This document shows positions 9,976-22,870 of a stretch of 64,000 nucleotides of DNA, piece after piece. Every line of letters begins with the position of its first letter. Within the stretch, counting starts at the first letter, position 1. Under the pieces are notes generated by a model. The model was not told the origin of the DNA and did no database searches. It was given only the letters and a program-made list of their open reading frames with translations. Location: NCBI GenBank assembly GCA_963705505.1, contig CAVPJU010000003.1, positions 64,001 through 128,000 of the forward strand. The letters run 5' to 3'. The position numbers were made by a program, and so were the translations under genes. This DNA comes from an uncultured bacterium. Lineage in GTDB: Bacteria; Desulfobacterota_D; UBA1144; Nemesobacterales; UBA2774.

Positions 9976-11234
9976 ATGGAAGTACGATCGATAAGGGGAT
10001 TCCACGACATCCTGCCCGAGGAAATCAGAAGGTGGCATTATATAGAGGAAAAGGCCAAAACCGTCTTCGAGCTCTACGGGTTTTCCGAGATCAGGATACC
10101 CGTCATCGAATTCACTGAAATCTTCTCAAGGAGCCTGGGCACGACTACGGATATCGTGGAGAAGGAGATGTACACGTTTGAGGACAGGGACGGCTCGTCG
10201 CTGACGCTCAGGCCCGAAGGCACTGCGGGCGTCGTCAGAGCGTTCATAGAGAACTCGATGTGGGCGAAATCCCCCGTCACGAAGCTCTACTACGGGGGCA
10301 TGATGTTCAGACACGAAAGGCCGCAAAAGGGGCGCTACAGGGGGTTTTATCAGATAGGCGCGGAAATCTTCGGACCCGAAGAGCCGTCTTCGGATGCGGA
10401 GCTCATAGCGATGGTCTGGAGGCTATTCGAGGAGATCGGAATAACGGAGTATTTAAAACTCGAGTTAAGCTCGCTCGGGGACAAAAACTGCAGGCCGCAG
10501 TACAAGGAAAAACTCACCGCGTATTTCACCCCTCAAAGGGGTGAGCTCTGCGAGGACTGCAGGAGGAGGCTCGAGACGAATCCCCTCAGAATACTCGACT
10601 GCAAGGAGAAGGGGTGCAGGGAGATCGCCGAGCGCGCCCCCAAGATGATAGACAACCTCTGCGCAGACTGCACCCGGCATTTCGACGAGGTAAAGGAAAA
10701 TCTGGAGAGCGTCGGCGTCCCATTCGTCATCAACCCCAAGATAGTCAGGGGGCTTGACTACTATACGCGGACGGTTTTCGAAATAACCACCGAAGAGCTC
10801 GGGTCGCAGAACGCGGTCGCCGCAGGCGGGAGGTACGACGGGCTCGTCGAGGAGCTGGGAGGGCCCCTGGTACGCCGGCAGTCGGGTTTGCCATGGGCCT
10901 GGAGAGGCTCGTGCTGCTTCACGAGAAGGCTTTCCCCGACGGGTTCGGCAAGGAAGTCAGGGTGTTCATCGCACACCTGGGCGAAGAAGCCAGGAAAAAG
11001 GCGTTTATGCTCGCGTCCGAGCTCAGGAAAAAAGGCGTCCCCACGGAGACCGAGTACGGCGTCAAGAGCCTCAAAAGCCAGCTCAAGCGCGCCGACAAAT
11101 CGGGGGCCAGGTATACGTTTATATTAGGCGAAGACGAGCTTAACCGGGGCGTCGTAAAGGTGAGGTATATGGATACGAGCACCGAGGAAGAGATGGAAAC
11201 CGGCCGCGCGCTGAAGCTCGTCACCGAACGATAA
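9976..11234 (+). CDS. hisS: Histidine--tRNA ligase, frameshift at ~10864-10868 (probable sequencing error)
   Basis: RGFHD, LRPEGTA, RHERPQKGRYR, VRGLDYY and GGRYD motifs. The second frame continues PAVGFAMGLERL plus the anticodon-binding domain. Confidence 0.95.
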
Positions 11235-11276: not shown

Positions 11277-11798
11277 TCACTTTGCTTTCCAGTAAAGCGA
11301 GTTCACTTCGAGGTAGTCCTTGATGAACATATCGGCGAGCTCGGAAACGTTCCCCTCGACGCATTCCTTAAGCTCAGCAGTATTGCATGACAGGAGCTTC
11401 CCCACAGACCACGTGGAGGCAGCGGTCGTGATATTCTGCCCGAGCTTCTTCCCGAAAAGCACCACGGTCTGGCATAGCTCGAGGTCGAGGTAAATGGCGT
11501 AGTGATCGCCGCTCGCAGCTTTGCTGGCGACGACTTTAACGAGGAGGTAAGCGCCTCCGAAGACGGTGAACCACTTCCTGTCCTCGAGCACCTTTATATT
11601 CGCCTTGTCGAGCTTCTGTACTATTAACCCCTTTATGTCCCCTTCCTTAACCCCGTCCTCTCTCGCGAAGTCCGATACCTCGTCCACTATTACGGCGACG
11701 CCGGATATGTCGGCGAGCGTTTCCTTGCCCGCGGCCAAAGCCGATACGCCCGGGAGAAGCACGCTAAGAAACAAAATGACTGTCGGAGCGATTCTCAA
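11277..11798 (-). CDS. Hypothetical secreted protein
   Basis: Signal peptide (..VSALA), 173 aa, host-like codon usage. Confidence 0.65.
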   Translation of the reverse strand: MRIAPTVILFLSVLLPGVSALAAGKETLADISGVAVIVDEVSDFAREDGVKEGDIKGLIVQKLDKANIKVLEDRKWFTVFGGAYLLVKVVASKAASGDHYAIYLDLELCQTVVLFGKKLGQNITTAASTWSVGKLLSCNTAELKECVEGNVSELADMFIKDYLEVNSLYWKAK

Positions 11799-11902
11799 TC
11801 CGTTTATAAATATATTCAGTCCGGCGATGAATTAAAAGCGTGATATTCAGAGGATGGCGGGACCGTATAAGGGGCGAATATGCACGGTAAGGAAGCCCGG
11901 GC

Positions 11903-14900
11903 TCAGGAGACGTCGCCTGATACCTTCTTTCCGCAGAATTCACAGAGGAGCTCGAGATTGGTTTTCACTATTTCGTGGGGACCGGGATAGGATTTTTTTG
12001 TAAACACCTTCAAGGCTTCCTGATAGGCTTCGGCAGCCTTGTCGCTATTCCGCGAGCGGTCTTCCTCCTCGGCGAGGGTCGTATACGCGCCGCCTATATT
12101 ATTCTCCGTGGTCGCGTACTGGATGGGGAATTTATCGACCGTGTAGACGATGAGGGCCGTCTCATAGGCGTTGATCGCCCTCTTGCAGTTCTTTGCCCTC
12201 TCCTCGACTTCGGAAAGCATCCTGTACACGACTCCCAGGTTATTCTGCGTCGCCGCGAACTGCAGCGGGTAGCTCTGGATCGTCCTCACCTTGAGCGCCT
12301 TTTCGAACGTCTTCACGGCCATCTTGCAGTTGGCCTCTTTTTCCTCGACGTCCGCAAGCGTCATGTAGGCAGTACCGAGGTTATTCTTCGTGGAGCCGAA
12401 CTGGACGGGGTGCTCCTTTTCGTTGTATACCCTGAACGCCTCCCTGTAGGAATTCACGGCCCTCTTGCAGTTCTTCCCCTTCTCCTCGACCTCGGCGAGA
12501 GTCCTGTAAACTATGCCAAGGTTGTTCTGTGTCGCGGCGTACTCGAGCGGGTATTCCTTGAGGTTATACACTTTGAGCACGCGCTCGAAAGATCTTACGC
12601 CCTTCTTCAAATACTCCGCCGCTTCCCCTGTCTCGGCCAGACGCTTATACAGGGTCCCGAGGCTGCTCAGTATGGACGCGTATTCCACGGGCATCCGCTC
12701 GCACGTATAGTATTTGAGCGCCTCCTCAAACGACTCCGCCGCGGCTTTGAAGCTCTCGGGGTCGCCTGAATTTTCAGAAATGCTCTCAAAGGCGGCCGCG
12801 ATATTCTTCCGGATGAGCCCGTAGTCCTGCGGCGAGTTTTCAAAAGTAATAACGGCCAGCGCCTTTTCGTATGCGTCTATCGCCTTTCCGTAATACTCCG
12901 TCTGCCCCTTCTTGCGGGCAATATTGCCGTAGGCTATGCCCATGTACTTATTTATTTCGGCGAAATCAAACGGAGAGGTCTCGCGGCCATATCCGCCGAG
13001 CGCTTTCGTGAACGCATCCACCGCCAGGAAATTATCGTCGGCGCGCTCCTCGACCTCGGCGAGGACACCGTAAGCGAACCCTATATGCTTCTCTATCCGG
13101 CAGTGCTTGGACAGGTGCTGCGCGGGATCGAAAACACCGAGCGCTTCGGTGTATGCGCCGATCGCCTTTTTATACTCCCCCGGATGACCTTTTATCTCCG
13201 CAAGCGCGCGGTATATGTTGCCCGTGCTCTCCTTAATCGCGCCGAACTCGAGTGGGGATTTTTCCTTCGTGAGCACACGTAAAGCCTCGTTATACGCACC
13301 GATAGCCCGTTCATAGCTCTTGACGTCACCCGATTTCTCGGCAATATGCGTGCATGAAGACGCGATGCCGCTTTGTGTCGCCGCATACTCCTCGGGGGAC
13401 TCTTCAAACGAATAGAATTTGAGAGCGTCTTCGTAAGATTTCAACGCCTTTCTGAAATTATTCTGAACCCCGCTGGTCATCCCCAGCTCCTCATACGCTC
13501 TGCCGAGACCCAGCTTCAGTGATGCGTACAGGAGAGGCGATTCCCCGGACGAGTCATGCTTTAAGCTCTCTTCGTAGTACTCCACAGCCTCTTCGGGGTT
13601 ATCGAATTCGACTTCCCGGGAGAGGGTTATAATATCCGCCTCTTCACCGGGCGCGCTCCCGCACTCTTCTGTCTGCGCCGGCTCCGACCCGGTTTCGTAT
13701 TCGTCATGCTTTACGATTTTCAGCAGAGGGCGCTCTCTATCTTTTTCGGGCTCTTCAACTGCGGACTGAAATTCATTAGCTTCGTCTGTTTCAGCGGTCC
13801 CGGCCTCATCATTCCCGGACATTAAGCCCCGCACGTTCCCGAGGCTTTCCATAACCTCTCCATATTCACGGGGAAACTCATCAGGGGTAAAAACCCTGAG
13901 CGCCTCCTCAAACGCGTGAACGGCGCTCTCCATGCTCCCTGGTTCATCCGGAGCCGCGAGGATTTCCGAATAGAGCTTCCCGATCTCGCTCTGGATCCCG
14001 GCGTATTCGGACGGATGATCGGAAATATTAAAAATCCCGAGCGCGTGCTTATACGCTTCGACCGCCTTCCCCGCGTTGATAAGCGGCTCTTCAACCCTGC
14101 TCAGAGCGGCGTAAGCGGAGCCCAGCCGCTTCCGTATGACCGCGTGCTCGAGCGGGAAAAGCCCTGCAGTATGGTAGTTGAGCGCTTCCTGATAACATCC
14201 TATCTTTTTATTGATGTCCCACGCCTCTACATCTCCGAGCTCACTTAAGAGCCCCCCCAGAAGCCCGTATAGCTCCTTCCGCTTATCCGCGCACGGTTCA
14301 TCGGTGAAGAAGGAGAGGGCTTCCTTATAAGAATCTACGGCAAGCTCAATATTGACCGCCCTCTCGTCCGTTATGCTCCCGTAAAAATCGCCGATCCTCC
14401 TGTGGGCTTCCGCGTACTCGGCCGGGAAATCGAGCGGGTCATAGAGACTGAGTAGCCCTCTATAGCTCACGGCCGCTCCCTCGCGGTCTCCCGAGCTCTC
14501 GAGCGATTCGGCAAGCGCCGTATACAATGCACCGAGAGAGCGGGTGATATCCATATATTCCTCCTCCCTCTCACGGCCGCAGCACTCCAGCGCTTCGGAA
14601 TAAGCGACTATAGCCTTCCTCAGGTCATCGACACCGCCTCTTTCTCTGTAGAGCCTTTCGAATACTTCTCCAAGCTTTCTACCATTAGCCGAGTGCTCCC
14701 TTCGGGCGATTTCCTCGGGATAGTGCATGAGCGCCTCGTCGTAGTATTCGATCGCCTTTTCCGGATCGTTCGATTCAGCCTGCATATCGCCGAGCGCCTT
14801 GAGCACATCCCCGATTCTGATGTTAACTATTCTCGAATCCTCTGCGGCGCTTTCGCGAGTGTAGATGCTTAATGATTCCTCATAAGCATTCAACGCTTCC

Positions 14901-16168
14901 TCGTAGACAGCCCTGTCGCCGTTAGCGCGGGCGAGCGACTCGTAAGCATCGCCGAGCCTCATTTTCATAAGCGCATACTCGGCCGGTGAATTCTCAAGCA
15001 GTCCGCAGGAAAGAGATTCCAGAAAAGACTCCACTGCCTGCCTCCCGTACTCACGCTCCCCAGTCAGGGAGAAGAGAGCGCCGAGCGCGACCCCGAGGTT
15101 ATTGCGGACTGCGGCAAACTCGCGGGGGTACCTGTCGGCCCTGAAGAACCCGAGGACCTCTTTATAGATACCTGCGGCTCTCTCAATATTATCCTTCTCA
15201 TCCTGTGAAAACGAATAGCGTATGAGCGTGTCGGCAAGCTTCTTTCCCATTATGGCCGCGAGTAATCCGGGTTTTTCCCGCCCGAGTATCCTTTCGTAGA
15301 CCCCGGCGCACTTCCCTGAATACCGACGCAGAACGTCGGTGTCGTCCTCCGATTCCAGGAGTCCCGAATAGAGGGACGCGAGACAGCTGAGGATCCGTGA
15401 AGGGACCTGCCTGCCCGTCTTCGATTCCCATGCGTCGAGCTCTTCGTATAATTCGTCAACGTCGGCGAAGCCGAAATCGTTCCGCGATGTGCAGTATCCG
15501 GACACCCTGAGCGCGGCATTCCGCAAGCTGCCGGCGTCTTCCGGACGCGGAATCTCGACGGTATTGAGACAATCGTTGATATAGCTCTCCATGATCCCGG
15601 GGAGAGCTTGCTCTAATCTTTTCATTATCGGATTTTCGGGGGATTCGCCGTGCTCGACACCGGCTGGGGGTCCGAGGTCTATGCTTTCCTGCAAATGACC
15701 GTTCAGAACTTTTTCGTAGTAAAAGCGTGCCGAATCCAACACACGCCCGGTTTCCGGCTCAAAGGAAGTTTTGGAATCTCCGTTCCGGTTTATCTCCCCG
15801 TCCGCTCCGTTTGACGAGCATTTTCTTCCGAGAGTGAGGATAATTTTTCCACCGCCCCTCAGAAACCCGAATTCATAAAACTCGTCAGGGCCCAGTCCGT
15901 CGAGTATAAGGACACCGAGCAGACATTCCCTGGCAAGCTCTTCGAAACGATCGATGTATTGTCCGTTCAGAAAGGCGTAATCGGAGAGTAAATTGACCTG
16001 AATACCTTTTTGGAGGAGATAATTCCTGAGGGGGTCGAGAATATCGCGGATGTCGCCGGCATTGCTCCCTGACCCGTGCAGAACGACGCACGTGAGCTCA
16101 CTCCCGGCACTGATAAGCCCGCAGATTTTCCTTGTTCCCGTTAACCCGGACTGAGTCCTGCCTGACAT
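11903..16168 (-). CDS. Large tetratricopeptide-repeat protein with N-terminal TIR/nucleoside-deoxyribosyltransferase-like domain
   Basis: Many ~42-aa repeats of type YPxxYAxTQNNLGxxYxxL. N-terminal beta/alpha pattern CVVLH..IQVNLL..CLLGVLILDG..EFYEFGFLRG..KIIL. Confidence 0.8.
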   Translation of the reverse strand: MSGRTQSGLTGTRKICGLISAGSELTCVVLHGSGSNAGDIRDILDPLRNYLLQKGIQVNLLSDYAFLNGQYIDRFEELARECLLGVLILDGLGPDEFYEFGFLRGGGKIILTLGRKCSSNGADGEINRNGDSKTSFEPETGRVLDSARFYYEKVLNGHLQESIDLGPPAGVEHGESPENPIMKRLEQALPGIMESYINDCLNTVEIPRPEDAGSLRNAALRVSGYCTSRNDFGFADVDELYEELDAWESKTGRQVPSRILSCLASLYSGLLESEDDTDVLRRYSGKCAGVYERILGREKPGLLAAIMGKKLADTLIRYSFSQDEKDNIERAAGIYKEVLGFFRADRYPREFAAVRNNLGVALGALFSLTGEREYGRQAVESFLESLSCGLLENSPAEYALMKMRLGDAYESLARANGDRAVYEEALNAYEESLSIYTRESAAEDSRIVNIRIGDVLKALGDMQAESNDPEKAIEYYDEALMHYPEEIARREHSANGRKLGEVFERLYRERGGVDDLRKAIVAYSEALECCGREREEEYMDITRSLGALYTALAESLESSGDREGAAVSYRGLLSLYDPLDFPAEYAEAHRRIGDFYGSITDERAVNIELAVDSYKEALSFFTDEPCADKRKELYGLLGGLLSELGDVEAWDINKKIGCYQEALNYHTAGLFPLEHAVIRKRLGSAYAALSRVEEPLINAGKAVEAYKHALGIFNISDHPSEYAGIQSEIGKLYSEILAAPDEPGSMESAVHAFEEALRVFTPDEFPREYGEVMESLGNVRGLMSGNDEAGTAETDEANEFQSAVEEPEKDRERPLLKIVKHDEYETGSEPAQTEECGSAPGEEADIITLSREVEFDNPEEAVEYYEESLKHDSSGESPLLYASLKLGLGRAYEELGMTSGVQNNFRKALKSYEDALKFYSFEESPEEYAATQSGIASSCTHIAEKSGDVKSYERAIGAYNEALRVLTKEKSPLEFGAIKESTGNIYRALAEIKGHPGEYKKAIGAYTEALGVFDPAQHLSKHCRIEKHIGFAYGVLAEVEERADDNFLAVDAFTKALGGYGRETSPFDFAEINKYMGIAYGNIARKKGQTEYYGKAIDAYEKALAVITFENSPQDYGLIRKNIAAAFESISENSGDPESFKAAAESFEEALKYYTCERMPVEYASILSSLGTLYKRLAETGEAAEYLKKGVRSFERVLKVYNLKEYPLEYAATQNNLGIVYRTLAEVEEKGKNCKRAVNSYREAFRVYNEKEHPVQFGSTKNNLGTAYMTLADVEEKEANCKMAVKTFEKALKVRTIQSYPLQFAATQNNLGVVYRMLSEVEERAKNCKRAINAYETALIVYTVDKFPIQYATTENNIGGAYTTLAEEEDRSRNSDKAAEAYQEALKVFTKKSYPGPHEIVKTNLELLCEFCGKKVSGDVS

Positions 16169-16334
16169 ATCCCGTTATCCCCTCTGGAGCTCCCGGAAAC
16201 TTACGCGCTTTAATAAATCCATTCGACAAAAAGCGCCGCTTCCGGATTACATCTGCAAACAGTCTGAGGGAGGGAATCCTGAAGACACAGTGCCGGCTAA
16301 GACACATTTAAGGAGCGAACTTAAGGCATGTCCC

Positions 16335-16430
16335 GACTTCGGCAGCCCAGCCGCCGTCATGCTCGATCTGAGAGCATTAAGGCCTGTGACTTTGCGTCCC
16401 ACCCTTTCGAATGGTTTGCCTTTTCGGTCA
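16335..16430 (-). ncRNA. Cyclic-di-GMP-I (GEMM-I) riboswitch
   Basis: Minus strand reads GACCGAAAAGGCAAACCAUUCGAAAGGGUGGGACGCAAAGUCACAGGCCUUAA...GGCGGCUGGGCUGCCGAAGUC. The core is nearly identical to Vibrio Vc2 (GGCAAACCAUUCGAAAGAGUGGGACGCAAAG...CCGA). Confidence 0.93.
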
Positions 16431-16457
16431 TGGAAATCTATGACCCCAACTTAATAA

Positions 16458-16486
16458 AAGTTATATCTTATTCGGGTCCGTGTCAA
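16458..16486 (-). promoter_or_regulatory. Sigma70-type promoter for the riboswitch-TPR transcript
   Basis: TTGACA-N17-TAACTT on the minus strand, ~30 nt upstream of the aptamer. Confidence 0.65.
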
Positions 16487-16627: not shown

Positions 16628-17059
16628 TTATTCTATTTTTTTGAAGCACTGGCCGCAAAATTTCGTCCCCTCGTATATCTCCGCCCCGCAGTCGCAAAAA
16701 GCCACGACCCTCGGTTTGGCAAGGGCCATGACGCTCCCGAGGGCCTTGCTGGCGTTTACATGCACAAGCCTCAGCCGCTCCTCCCACTCTTCGATCTCGG
16801 CCTCGATATTATCTATTTCACCGCACCTCGCCCCTATGGTCTCTTCGACGACTTTCCCCGTATGCTTGAACGTCCTGTAAACGGTGCTCCCCATATCGAA
16901 TAGAGCCTCCCTCTTCCTGCGGCCAAGCTGCCTCAGGGTGTTTTTGATTCTAATCGCGTCGTATGCCTCTTTCGACCTTATATTTATTATCCTGAGGCCT
17001 TTATTTACCCCGTCTTTAAATATTGTTAGAATGTCCCGGGTGTCCGGATTATCCGACAT
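16628..17059 (-). CDS. Coiled-coil protein with C-terminal zinc ribbon
   Basis: C-terminal CDCG...KFCGQC. GAGGAG RBS. Confidence 0.75.
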   Translation of the reverse strand: MSDNPDTRDILTIFKDGVNKGLRIINIRSKEAYDAIRIKNTLRQLGRRKREALFDMGSTVYRTFKHTGKVVEETIGARCGEIDNIEAEIEEWEERLRLVHVNASKALGSVMALAKPRVVAFCDCGAEIYEGTKFCGQCFKKIE

Positions 17060-17443
17060 TGTCTCGCTCCTCTCGTTTAATCAATAAAACCGTCCCGTCG
17101 GGCAGGCTCTCAAAATGATACTCGATTAAGTCAAAAGGAGAAACGGATAATTCATTGCGAAGCTCAAAAAAGAACCCGGACATTCTCGATTGTCCCCTGC
17201 CCCGAGGAAAAATGATTGACTGGGGGAAGAGATAGGATAATCTTTTATAAGTCTTTTTCGGTTATGTCTTTTAGAGGAGTGTAAGAAATATCGTCTTTCT
17301 ACTCGCACCACGCTGCTGACCCTCCTGAAAAGCCCGGAAGTCAGGCTGCCCTGCCCGAAAATATTAACAGATAAATCCTAGGGGGAATTTCGATGAAATC
17401 GTTATACCGGAATTGCTATGGCAAAGAAAACTGGACATATGAT

Positions 17444-19870
17444 ATGAACCCGAAAACGTCCCGCATCCGTCTCGCGCTGCTGATTATCCTGTCGATATCG
17501 GCGGTATGTGTTTCCATGCCGTTCGCATCGGTATCCGGGGAAAACCCCGCGAAGCCGGAAGAAACTGTCGTCGTGCTTGAGGAATGGCAGGTAAAAGGGC
17601 TCACCGGAGCCTTGCAAGACCCGAATCCCGCGGTCGTGCAAAAGGCGATAGGGGAGCTTGCCAAAACCAAGAAAAGGAGCGATATCCCCGAGCTCCCCGG
17701 GCTGCTGAAGGATAAGGATATTCAGGTCCGTAAAGCCGCATTGATGGCTGCCGGGGGGATGGGGGCATCTTCAAAAGACCTCCTTCCTCAGATCGTTGAG
17801 AATCTGGGCGACAGTAACGATAGCATCCGCTACAACGCGGTGGCGGCCCTCAGTAAAATCGGCGGCTTGAATTCGAAACAGACCCAGTCGGTGATTCCGC
17901 TCCTGGGCGACAAGGACAAATTGGTAAGCCTCGCGGCCGTCGAGGTGATCGCAAGTAATTCGAAGGCATCCGCTCAGCAGATACAGGCGGTAGTGCGTCT
18001 CCTGAATAATAAAAACCCCGACACGCGCTCGGCTGCGGCAGCCGTGCTCGGCAAAATGGGGCCTGCGGGCTCGCGGCAGAGCGCCAAAATTGCAAGACTC
18101 CTCAAGGATGAGGACGAAGAGGTCAGGATAAGCGCAGTACGCGCTCTCGGGGCGTTCGGGGAATCCTCAAAACCCTACGCGAAGGAAATCGCCGGCTTAT
18201 TAAGAGACAGGAGCGGGTACATAAGGCTCAGTGTTCTACAATCGCTCGGAAATATCGGCGACATACCGAAAGAGTCACGGTCCCTCGTAGTCGCGTTATT
18301 AAAGGACAGGGACAGGAGAGTCAACGACGAAGCTGCAAGAACTATAGGCAAGATCGGTAAAGGGAAAAGCGATACAGTGGACGCAGTCGTGTATCTGCTG
18401 AAAGACCTGAACACAAATGTGAGAATGAACGCGCTTAACGCACTGGGCGAGCTCGGAACCAGCGCCCAGGATAAAGCGCCCCGGGTAGCGGAGCTTCTTA
18501 ACGACCCGGACCCTTTCGTACGCATGTCGGCAATTAATGCTTTGGCTAAAATGGGGGAGCGCGGGAAAGCAGAGGCCCCTAAGATCGAGGAGCACGTCAG
18601 GGATCAAGACACGAGAGTCAGCTACAACGCGATCAGAGCGTTGAGCAAAATGGGGAAACAGGGGGAAAATTACACCGAAGTATTCATGGAGCTGCTCAAG
18701 TCCAATGATAAAGTAATCAGGTCCAACGCTGCCCTGGAAATTGCATCTGCGGGAGAGCTTACGAAACCCCAGTTGGAGCAAATCGTGGGGATGCTGAAAA
18801 ACAGGGAAATAAAATTCCGCAGTACCGGGACATTCATTCTCGGCAAGATGGGAGAAAAGGCGGGGGACGCGGTGCCTTCCATTGCCGAGCTTCTGAAGGA
18901 CCCGAACCCTGTGATAAGGTCTACGGCGCTCGATGCGCTGGGGAAGATAGGGCAGGCCTCAAGCGGCCAGGCACCCCAGATCGCTTCCATGCTGAACGAC
19001 CCCGACGAGGACGTCCGCGCCAATGCCGCATGGGCTCTCGGACAAATCGGCCCCTCGGCCGAACCCGAGATTCCCGGGATTGCGAAACTATTGAAGGACA
19101 AATCGGTCAAGGTGCGGATCAATGCGGTGGACGCCTTGCTCAGTCTGGGTGAGCCGGCCCGGAATTATAATTCCGATATAGCCGCCCTTCTTAACGATGA
19201 GGACGAGAAAGTCAGGACTATTACGGCGATTGCGCTCGGGAGGATGGGCCCTCGAGCGGCGGACCAGGCTCCGAAGCTCGGTGAATTCATAAAAACCCGG
19301 AACGACGGCAAGCGGGAGAACAGGAATAGCGTCAATGCAGGCCTCGAAGCACTGGGAAACATGGGGAACGCGGCGAGCGGACAAGCCGGAGTGGTCGTAG
19401 AAACCCTCAACAGCGAGAAACAGATAATCCGTGTTACGGCAAGGGAAGCGCTCTGGAAAATGAGCCCCCTCGATAATAAGGCGGTGCTGGGAATACTCGC
19501 CGCCACATACAATAATCCGTCCGGCACCGACGATCTCAGACTGCTCGCACACTACGCCGGCGGAGGGGACGAGACAACCGAAATGCTTATAAAATGGGTA
19601 GGCGCCAATGCGGAAAAAGCACCCGCCTCTATGGACAGAAAGGAGAGTGCGGAAGTGCTTAACCTTTATCTCGACAATTGGGAATACACCGGGGGGAACG
19701 TGAAAATGCGTGAGGATTTCGTTAACCGCATTTCGGGAGCGGTGGAAGCCGGGGAATGGACAAGGGAAGACCTCCCACTGTTGAAAAAGGCCGAGGAAAC
19801 CCTGAAGTCCGGCAAATACGAAAACCAGGCTAACGCGATAAATGAGAAGATAGGAAAGGTGGAGGGATAG
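17444..19870 (+). CDS. Exported HEAT-repeat (PBS-lyase-like) protein
   Basis: Signal peptide, then ~33-aa repeats LLKDxDxxVRxxAxxALGxMG. Confidence 0.85.
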   Translation: MNPKTSRIRLALLIILSISAVCVSMPFASVSGENPAKPEETVVVLEEWQVKGLTGALQDPNPAVVQKAIGELAKTKKRSDIPELPGLLKDKDIQVRKAALMAAGGMGASSKDLLPQIVENLGDSNDSIRYNAVAALSKIGGLNSKQTQSVIPLLGDKDKLVSLAAVEVIASNSKASAQQIQAVVRLLNNKNPDTRSAAAAVLGKMGPAGSRQSAKIARLLKDEDEEVRISAVRALGAFGESSKPYAKEIAGLLRDRSGYIRLSVLQSLGNIGDIPKESRSLVVALLKDRDRRVNDEAARTIGKIGKGKSDTVDAVVYLLKDLNTNVRMNALNALGELGTSAQDKAPRVAELLNDPDPFVRMSAINALAKMGERGKAEAPKIEEHVRDQDTRVSYNAIRALSKMGKQGENYTEVFMELLKSNDKVIRSNAALEIASAGELTKPQLEQIVGMLKNREIKFRSTGTFILGKMGEKAGDAVPSIAELLKDPNPVIRSTALDALGKIGQASSGQAPQIASMLNDPDEDVRANAAWALGQIGPSAEPEIPGIAKLLKDKSVKVRINAVDALLSLGEPARNYNSDIAALLNDEDEKVRTITAIALGRMGPRAADQAPKLGEFIKTRNDGKRENRNSVNAGLEALGNMGNAASGQAGVVVETLNSEKQIIRVTAREALWKMSPLDNKAVLGILAATYNNPSGTDDLRLLAHYAGGGDETTEMLIKWVGANAEKAPASMDRKESAEVLNLYLDNWEYTGGNVKMREDFVNRISGAVEAGEWTREDLPLLKKAEETLKSGKYENQANAINEKIGKVEG

Positions 19871-21394: not shown

Positions 21395-22870
21395 TTGAGC
21401 AACGATACGGCGAGGCTCATAAGGTCCGAAGGCGAAAGCTTACTCAGGGGGCTCTACGGGGAGCTGTTCATGAACCTTGCGGGCAGAAGGACAGAAGCCC
21501 GCACAGCGGACATTTACAACGCCCACAGAGAGCTCCTCGAGCCCGAGCTCTTCATATCCCACAAAGGGGCCGCGCGTATAGAACAAAACCCGGGCGGCAT
21601 GCTCATATCCTCGTTTCTGGCCGGTGCTTTCCTCGGGGGAAAGTGCTCGGGACTCACCGACAGGATACTGACCCTCGAGGCGGGTGAAGAATTCCGGGCG
21701 GGCGGCAGGAAAATTACAATTCGATCTATGAAGGCAGAGATACTGTCCGAGCCGAAAAAACAAAAAAGGGTTGAAATCGGGAGCGGGAGCGGTGAAATAT
21801 TAAACAGGCTCAACCCGCTCTACAGTCAAAAACTCGAGAAACTCACCGAATGCTCCGAGGCGCTCGGCTTCAGGAACTACGGAGAGCTAATAGACGCGAC
21901 CGCAGGTCTCGGTATCTCGCGCCTTAAAGAGGAGGCGGGAAAGTTTCTCAAGGATACCGACTACATCGCGGGCGATATACTGAAGTGGTTTTTTATGAAA
22001 AAAATGGAATTGAATCCGAGAGACGCCTCTCTCGGCGATATGATTCACTTATTGAACTCAGCCGAGCTGAGGGGATATTTTCCGAAAGTCGATCCTGCGG
22101 TTTTCTCGAGAACCGTTCTCGATGGGATGTCTCTCTCTCCGGCTCACGAAACCAAATTCGACACGGAGAAAAGGAGAGGGAAAGCGACGGACGCTTTCTC
22201 AATTCCCGTGAACCCTCCGTTTGAGGCCGCCATATCCATATACCCCGCAGGCGGTATTCAGGATTACGAATCGTTACTGGGATGCCTCGGACACTCATTA
22301 TGCTTCCTATTTACGGAACCCGGCGACGACTTCGAATTCTTATTCCTTAGAGACGAAACTCTCACCGATACATTCTCCCGGCTATTCGCGAATATGCTCT
22401 ATGAACCGAAATGGCTGAGGAAGCATTTAAAAATCGATACGGACGGGGATTTCCTCAATTTTCTCTATCTTAGACGGCTCATGTCGGCAAGGCTCGACGC
22501 GGCGCGTGCGCTCTATGCAGGGGAGCTCTTCGGCGGCGGGGAGACGCGCGAGATGCCCGATTTGTTCTCTCAGATTATGGGAGACGCCGTGAAATGCAGC
22601 GTAAGCGGCAAAAGCTATCTCGCGGAATCCCTGTCTCCGGTCTGCTCGCCTTTCCGGTTTAAGGCCGAGCTTGCAGTGCCCGGGCTCCGTCATTTCATGA
22701 TGGAATCGTTCGACGAGGAGTGGTGGAGGACGAAGGCGGCGGGGGATTTCATGAGAGGCATCTGGTCCGGCGGCGGCAGGATAACAGCCGACTCGCTTTT
22801 GACGAAATCAGGCTGTAAAGAGTCCGATTCGAAAATGCTAGTTCGGAATTTCGAAGATCCGCTCCGGTAA
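21395..22870 (+). CDS. M3/M32-like gluzincin homologue lacking the HExxH motif
   Basis: AFSIPVNPP...GGIQDYESLLGCLGHSL and a C-terminal FDEEWWR..AGDFM..IW resemble this family. TTG start with GGAG RBS. Confidence 0.5.
   Translation: MSNDTARLIRSEGESLLRGLYGELFMNLAGRRTEARTADIYNAHRELLEPELFISHKGAARIEQNPGGMLISSFLAGAFLGGKCSGLTDRILTLEAGEEFRAGGRKITIRSMKAEILSEPKKQKRVEIGSGSGEILNRLNPLYSQKLEKLTECSEALGFRNYGELIDATAGLGISRLKEEAGKFLKDTDYIAGDILKWFFMKKMELNPRDASLGDMIHLLNSAELRGYFPKVDPAVFSRTVLDGMSLSPAHETKFDTEKRRGKATDAFSIPVNPPFEAAISIYPAGGIQDYESLLGCLGHSLCFLFTEPGDDFEFLFLRDETLTDTFSRLFANMLYEPKWLRKHLKIDTDGDFLNFLYLRRLMSARLDAARALYAGELFGGGETREMPDLFSQIMGDAVKCSVSGKSYLAESLSPVCSPFRFKAELAVPGLRHFMMESFDEEWWRTKAAGDFMRGIWSGGGRITADSLLTKSGCKESDSKMLVRNFEDPLR

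Follow-up and report, generated by a model that had tools for sequence, protein, structure and literature searches.

The window analysed here comprises 64,000 nucleotides (nt) of an uncultured bacterium (GenBank assembly GCA_963705505.1, contig CAVPJU010000003.1, positions 64,001 to 128,000) from Ca. Dadabacteria, a phylum without a cultured member according to 10.1101/2020.06.22.165886. Its minus strand carries, in the direction of transcription, a gene for a 143-aa protein, a predicted promoter, a cyclic di-GMP (c-di-GMP) riboswitch aptamer, a leader, a single 1421-aa open reading frame (ORF; below, the giant gene), and a gene for a small secreted protein (Table 1). The product of the giant gene (P0001) combines an N-terminal domain of the TIR/NDT fold, called here the head, with a giant array of tetratricopeptide repeats (TPRs). 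The riboswitch itself is ordinary; what appears to be new is the occurrence of a TIR-derived giant TPR protein under a c-di-GMP riboswitch. The first-pass annotation of this DNA knew of no description of such a pairing, and none was found in the literature searched, although surveys of conflict systems, variant riboswitches, and TPR-S proteins may list the family.

The riboswitch and its linkage to the giant gene

Judging from its sequence, the aptamer is a genuine, standard member of the c-di-GMP-I class (GEMM-I, RF01051, V. cholerae Vc2 type) and is expected to bind c-di-GMP. A near-canonical GEMM-I aptamer had been annotated at 16335-16430, and the RF01051 covariance model indeed scores 69.2 bits there (gathering cut-off 35). 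The sole Rfam match in the 64-kb window, at 16337-16429, is to RF03167 (67.2 bits, E 1e-13, cut-off 59); within one set of relatives, Rfam was run on 14 of 29 loci. This top score is not diagnostic, because the consensus of the RF03167 model has G where the window RNA has A47 (16393), which rules out the c-di-GMP-I-GGC variant; we take the name of the variant to denote G at this position and presume the usual numbering for A47. The other ligand-contact bases are G20 (16420) and C92 (16342), and all three are invariant across 23 of 23 aligned loci. Recognition of c-di-GMP proceeds through G20 and C92, and A20 is the mark of the switches for 3',3'-cyclic GMP-AMP (cGAMP) (PMC6140456); hence, the specificity of the latter class (GEMM-Ib), which needs A at position 20, is ruled out by G20. 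In kin sequences, 89.9% of the cells of P1/P2/P3 are paired (29-45% in slid controls), with two-sided changes in 18 of 33 pairs; shuffled controls equalled the observed covariation in 0 of 500 cases on four of five measures and in 22 of 500 for pair types.

The promoter recognised by the first-pass annotation is readable from the letters of the minus strand as TTGACA (16486-16481), a 17-nt spacer, and TAACTT (16463-16458). The form TTGACA-N17-TAnnnT recurs in 16 of the 18 riboswitch-linked loci and the remaining two have an N16 spacer (in G007 by eye); the consensus promoter scan does not list the window motif, the -10 element of which agrees at 3 of 6 positions only. The leader of about 170 nt and the 1421-aa ORF were also described correctly: 168 nt separate the aptamer from the ATG, and the frame is unbroken. 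A conserved intrinsic terminator was looked for in the leaders of the linked loci and none was found, a point of difference from the Vc2 type. When the aptamer was sequestered in the folding models, the accessibility of the ribosome-binding site (RBS) went down in 13 of 17 leaders (mostly slightly), up in three, and stayed equal in one; the modelling leans slightly towards a translational OFF switch of the giant gene by c-di-GMP.

The genome holds 10 c-di-GMP-I riboswitches. The other nine precede mostly secreted, exopolysaccharide (EPS)-export, cell-wall, and pilus genes, e.g., a PilZ fusion, secreted proteins, a lytic transglycosylase, an EPS-export operon, and pilMNOPQ (products judged by eye). 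It also encodes five GGDEF proteins, all with Asp in GHxxGD, presumably the signature that speaks against cGAMP specificity. At 42.5 bits, the riboswitch before pilMNOPQ (L010, G000:C1:152752-152838) is divergent: GGC is missing from positions 20-22 and position 47 is G, which could reflect decay or a variant specificity. Another one (L001, G000:C3:199905-202871) precedes the gene for a protein of 927 aa whose N-terminus bears a PilZ motif, a case of double c-di-GMP control.

Linkage of the riboswitch to the giant gene, which the first-pass annotation proposed to look for in related genomes, is conserved: of the 27 relatives having the gene (25 relatives with the head among 61 genomes of the order, plus G066 and G067 from a class-wide search), 21 carry the riboswitch directly upstream of it. 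In G025, the linkage was taken from coordinates; the copy of G023 is frameshifted along with its neighbours. The orthologue stands without a riboswitch in G056, G059, G038, G036, G066, and G067. With the window genome included, the head domain is present in 26 of the 61 genomes, all of them among the 35 that have c-di-GMP-I riboswitches and none among the 26 without. Co-occurrence was uninformative as regards a link to type IV pili, PilM being near-universal (58/61 genomes; GGDEF, 45/61), and a search for the MglA motif, made by regular expression only, found none in the genome.

The giant-gene locus is a stable, syntenic chromosomal site of Ca. Dadabacteria among housekeeping genes. The order is an MFS gene, usually a HEAT gene, the 143-aa gene, the riboswitch, the giant gene, usually the secreted gene, hisS, and a glycosyltransferase gene; the giant gene has a GC content of 55% (0.67 at third codon positions, GC3), like its neighbours. 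In G013, the riboswitch and the giant gene are gone and both flanking neighbours are kept; what is left there (L090, 13564-13917) is a decayed riboswitch promoter, TTGATC-N17-TAGGTT (by eye), with neither aptamer nor giant gene. The family profile finds in the genome only the giant gene and one paralogue, both with decayed motifs. A 1573-aa paralogue of the giant gene (L057, 9365-14086; G000:C1:259364-264085) has a GC content of 33% (GC3 0.28), no riboswitch, an integrase-like gene in front, and a near-identical copy at the matching position in G007; it looks recently acquired.

Table 1. Features of the giant-gene locus (window coordinates)
Feature	Coordinates	Strand	Basis or remark
173-aa secreted protein, unnamed family	11277..11798	minus	104 nt downstream of the giant gene; a neighbour, not obligate
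Promoter-like motif TTTAA/TTTAC...TATATT, 7-10 nt before the secreted-gene start	11809..11836	minus	By eye, 10 loci
1421-aa cytoplasmic pseudo-TIR/NDT and giant TPR protein (P0001)	11903..16168	minus	ORF without stops
Four C-terminal TPRs with Asn pairs (QNNLG 1214, KNNLG 1261, QNNLG 1308, ENNIG 1355), predicted peptide clamp	11969..12556	minus	Conservation and model
Acidic, poorly conserved linker, aa ~761-876, splitting the TPR array	13541..13888	minus	Repeat mapping and alignment
TIR/NDT-fold head, aa ~25-200; motif D90-K108, E99 kept, R93->G, N95->D	15569..16096	minus	Fold prediction and wider family
168-nt leader/expression platform, purine-rich RBS	16169..16336	minus	No conserved terminator
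c-di-GMP-I aptamer, extended P1, GAAA-capped P2	16331..16435	minus	Rfam match 16337-16429 and covariation
5' hairpin GGUCAU/AUGACC overlapping the P1 5' strand, may compete with P1	16426..16445	minus	Inferred from minimum-free-energy folds
Sigma70-type promoter TTGACA-N17-TAACTT of the riboswitch transcript	16458..16486	minus	Predicted; motif kept in 18/18 linked loci
143-aa predicted coiled-coil/zinc-ribbon protein, conserved upstream neighbour	16628..17059	minus	Domain scan and synteny

Head domain and TPR arm of the giant protein

The AlphaFold2 model of the head displays a flavodoxin-like fold with a mean predicted local distance difference test (pLDDT) of 71. The best structural matches are MilB (4OHR; Z 12.4, root-mean-square deviation (rmsd) 3.3, 137 residues aligned), TIR domains (Z about 11, i.e., within about 1 Z of MilB), NDTs, and TIR-STING (7un8; Z 10.6, rmsd 2.7, 123 aligned). 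Neither Pfam nor NCBIfam gives a significant match for the head, and a pattern search with the head returned no named loci; Atlas matches (0.86-0.89) are leads only. A profile search retrieved 152 relatives among 1.84 billion representatives. A Pfam scan covered 42 of the 150 family members: most of them consist of a TIR-like head and TPRs, and three match PF10137; among the aligned members, at E<=0.1, 23 of 29 match PF10137 (CAP12-PCTIR_TIR) and 19 of 29 match PF05014. The family motif DG[LF]RPNVxFE[YF]G aligns, weakly (E 0.066), with a stretch of the E. lactis TIR-STING (9LMQ) ending at residue 93; counting back along this alignment puts the family Glu at E86, the catalytic residue of that protein (PMC12421889), and E84 is essential in TIR-SAVED (10.1101/2022.05.04.490601). 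As shown by the profile search and the tree described below, the head is a descendant of a Cap12/Pycsar-like TIR-TPR family.

The likeness to both groups of enzymes has its bounds. The head shares with the Cap12/Pycsar TIR NADases (TIR-STING 9LMQ/7UN8, TIR-SAVED; PF10137) the fold and the stretch aligned with the catalytic E86 of ElSTING, but Arg and Asn are lost here and Glu is dispensable in half of the linked copies; a TPR array replaces the STING/SAVED/cNMP sensor, there is no cyclase operon, and the target of c-di-GMP would be the mRNA, with no sign so far of an action on the protein. With the NDT/MilB/DNPH1 N-glycosidases (PF05014), it shares a predicted dimer formed through the Glu-bearing helix; in contrast to them, it is fused to about 1200 aa of TPRs and seems not to conserve the catalytic set, of which Glu was scored, the identity to MilB being 13%.

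All Dadabacteria copies group in one long-branched clade of 46 rows (SH-aLRT 92) in a quick tree comprising 148. Arg, Asn, and Glu of the motif are all intact in 94 of the 102 rows outside this clade, a conservation suggesting a catalytic need for Arg and Asn; the same holds for 1 of the 46 rows inside it and for 0 of the 18 riboswitch-linked copies. The window head has G93 and D95 in place of Arg and Asn and keeps E99; in some other linked copies, Glu is replaced by Q, S, K, A, or F (the closest relative, P0009, the start of which matches L012 of G006, carries Gln), and Arg and Asn are gone in nearly all. At the same locus, R, N, and E are all present in G067, and R and E in G066, neither of which has a riboswitch, yet the motif of the riboswitch-less G056, G059, and G038 has decayed; the full motif was thus probably ancestral at this site and disappeared on more than one occasion (an inferred order of events). 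In G067, the usual place of the riboswitch is taken by a divergently oriented REC-HD_5 gene (L112, 1871-2947; HD-GYP-like). The wider family also includes P0015-P0156, TIR-TPR proteins of ~600-750 aa with RPNVxFExG intact, whose heads give few Pfam matches and for which PADLOC has no specific model; they are candidate uncharacterised NADase/N-glycosidase receptors.

The head is under purifying selection. In seven pairs, the ratio of nonsynonymous to synonymous substitution rates (dN/dS) was 0.12-0.25 for the head, 0.16-0.42 for the middle repeats, and 0.06-0.13 for the last 190 aa, the head falling below the middle repeats in four pairs. Across 23 heads, the sole invariant positions are Y98, G101, and G105 (C, L, and K are near-invariant), and these three residues lie in the interface (aa 92-107 and others) of a predicted homodimer. 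The latter scored 0.58 (best of three controls, 0.00), with runs agreeing in at least 63% of contacts and pLDDT of at least 58; the mark applied is attained by 20 of 30 homodimers of solved structure, as against 1 of 23 monomers.

The rest of the protein is built of 47-aa TPR-like repeats, ~18-21 of them in the window protein depending on the threshold. The whole protein has no hydrophobic segment (maximum KD19, 1.29), and its only Pfam matches of note are of the TPR type, including a weak TPR-S match at aa 1281-1396 (34.8 bits at a cut-off of 27.6, with no stretch significant alone). Full-length orthologues range from 782 to 3771 aa across the order, with the head retained at the N-terminus. 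The constant part of this arm is its end. Across 16 complete orthologues (G056, truncated ORFs, and paralogues were left out), an Asn-Asn pair occurs in 60 of 64 units of the last four repeats, in 1 of 64 of the next four, and in 40 of 255 of the rest. Within the genus, the C-terminal region is 80-88% identical vs. 52-61% for the first 94 aa; across genera, the heads are 21-28% identical. The model of the C-terminal region (pLDDT 94.8) matches the TPR-peptide complex of LGN-Inscuteable (3sf4; TM-score 0.79, rmsd 3.1), and its sequence matches BtubC, OGT, and KLC. The asparagine ladders of OGT anchor peptide backbones (PMC11145291). Both marks of an Asn-ladder TPR clamp, i.e., a predicted superhelix and Asn in successive repeats, are found here, and the asparagines would probably face the groove. 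The resemblance to the clamps of LGN/GPSM2, KLC, BtubC, and OGT, including the OGT-like Asn pairs, concerns the way of working and not orthology, given the 47-aa repeats and about 18% identity.

Proposed role and its alternatives

The reading preferred here, to which a probability of about 0.55 is assigned, is that a TIR-TPR protein of the immune type has been domesticated and now serves, controlled by c-di-GMP, as a dimeric scaffold that binds peptides. The dedicated promoter would give rise to a transcript with the c-di-GMP-I aptamer at its 5' end and therefore, provided that the ligand is bound, c-di-GMP would alter the expression of the 1421-aa gene. The head keeps its predicted fold, and its Tyr-x-x-Gly-x-x-x-Gly helix may mediate homodimerisation; the TPR arm, variable in length, would bear the constant four-repeat Asn-ladder clamp gripping an extended peptide of one conserved cellular partner. 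Thus, c-di-GMP would tune the amount of a dimeric scaffold, each of the two arms of which grips a peptide. Since the catalytic motif is mostly lost from the head, the product is most likely such a paired peptide-gripping protein, acting in the cytoplasm as a bivalent scaffold or tether within the lifestyle regulon of c-di-GMP, and not a defence enzyme or effector destroying NAD+ or nucleotides.

A number of points weigh against this reading. The head has no significant sequence match in the PDB, the tree comes from a quick search with long branches and SH-aLRT of 92 for the clade, and Glu is retained in 9 of the 18 linked copies (that of the window and eight others). The motif has decayed in the riboswitch-less G056, G059, and G038 too, so its decay was not caused by the gain of the riboswitch; the co-occurrence of head and riboswitch is confounded by kinship and genome streamlining (10.1101/2020.06.22.165886). 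The passing of the dimer prediction may reflect likeness to solved NDT/TIR dimers, the high C-terminal identity could partly stem from repeat homogenisation, and no binding partner of the giant protein has been identified. The modelling of terminators and RBS gave no consistent switch, leaving no expression platform fixed.

The first-pass annotation saw here an effector-plus-sensor layout of the immune type. The fold and the immune-type TIR-TPR descent have held up; the active nucleotide-degrading effector has not, at least as the main reading, considering the decayed motif, native composition, housekeeping synteny, and lack of PADLOC matches (0 for the three genes of the locus). An active TIR/NDT effector of immunity or cell death, equipped with a TPR sensor and controlled by c-di-GMP at the RNA level, would agree with the modelled fold, the family link to CAP12-PCTIR_TIR, the glutamates kept in the window and half of the linked copies, the full R-P-N..E motif of the syntenic orthologue G067, and a repeat number varying as widely as in a sensor; it is nevertheless quite unlikely, since the linked copies have nearly all lost Arg and Asn and some have swapped Glu as well, the neighbourhood is of the housekeeping type, and the copies nearest to an intact motif (G066, G067) lack the riboswitch. 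Moreover, conservation is highest at the putative sensor end, which is not diversifying, Pfam finds no STING, SAVED, NTPase, or nucleotide-sensor domain in the giant protein (NTPase was also sought with NCBIfam), and no adjacent cyclase gene is seen in a Pfam scan of this protein and 11 neighbours. The central NTPase of a STAND/NLR-like immune receptor is not found here by Pfam or NCBIfam.

A head that does not cut could still bind a nucleotide signal, making the protein an allosteric receptor in which the dimeric head controls binding by the TPR clamp. The NDT/TIR/SLOG-like folds at the top of the structure list, the purifying selection on the head, and the predicted dimer interface covering the old active-site helix are all consistent with this idea, which is judged doubtful because no polar pocket residue is invariant, the invariant set being Y, G, and G. 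The head might also serve as an adaptor, itself non-catalytic, in a complex for immunity or death, a pseudo-TIR that nucleates an active TIR or other effector once the TPRs sense an invader or signal peptide. Inactive bacterial TIRs (TIR-FT, FxsC-C) of TIR-ParA systems, which like this head lack the NADase site, have been proposed to act in multimerisation (10.64898/2026.10.19.760177), and the weak TPR-S match fits in with an adaptor; unlike those systems, the present one has no ParA, STAND, or active TIR partner, and it shows riboswitch control and a stable chromosomal locus. The adaptor appears very unlikely, as there is no defence context at the locus and the family profile finds just the giant gene and one decayed paralogue (other TIR families were not searched genome-wide). 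Taken broadly, a TIR-type immune or cell-death receptor, active where Glu is kept or else a pseudo-TIR adaptor, with its production switched by the c-di-GMP riboswitch, is unlikely. The idea that the head is a neutral relic on an ordinary TPR protein, in which only the array matters, would account for the low identity of the head across genera and its eroded motif; it is hardly tenable in view of the dN/dS of the head and the persistence of the N-terminal head in proteins of such different lengths.

With the domesticated scaffold as the preferred reading, the locus lets one trace how a TIR-TPR protein of the immune type became established at a stable place in the chromosome: the Cap12-type motif survives in some orthologues that lack the riboswitch, the majority of copies no longer have this motif, and the majority now stand under a c-di-GMP riboswitch. 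This reading makes testable predictions, i.e., a pseudo-enzyme dimer head and a four-repeat clamp with one conserved partner on an arm varying five-fold in length. Were the head active, c-di-GMP riboswitch control would be linked to TIR immunity, and with a TIR immune receptor at the locus, the motile/sessile decision would be coupled directly to innate immunity at the RNA level, a connection for which the literature searched gave no published example.

Neighbouring genes

The 173-aa secreted protein has a signal-like N-terminal stretch (by eye). The first-pass annotation was right about this gene and its position and suggested that it may be co-transcribed with the giant gene; co-transcription is not a requirement, since the gene has a promoter-like motif of its own and persists in G013 in the absence of the riboswitch and giant gene. 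This motif has the form TTTAC[AT]/TTTAA-N16-17-TATA[TG]T in 10 loci, G013 among them, and the secreted gene probably has its own, near-leaderless transcript. Read-through from the giant gene is possible, because no minus-strand terminator is listed between the two.

The 143-aa protein is characterised by a highly conserved N[IV]RS[KR]EAY motif and a C-terminal zinc ribbon lost in some lineages. As an obligate partner of the giant gene it was rejected: several loci keep it without the riboswitch or giant gene. The hisS gene (9976-11234) is split in the window into overlapping frames of 383 and 113 aa, and relatives have one ORF of ~416-420 aa; pilM (G000:C1:153133-154136) is split as well, both splits being probably assembly indels. 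Further upstream, two genes are syntenic across the order, one for a 491-aa protein matching neither Pfam nor NCBIfam (21395-22870) and one for a conserved 825-aa HEAT-repeat protein (17393-19870).

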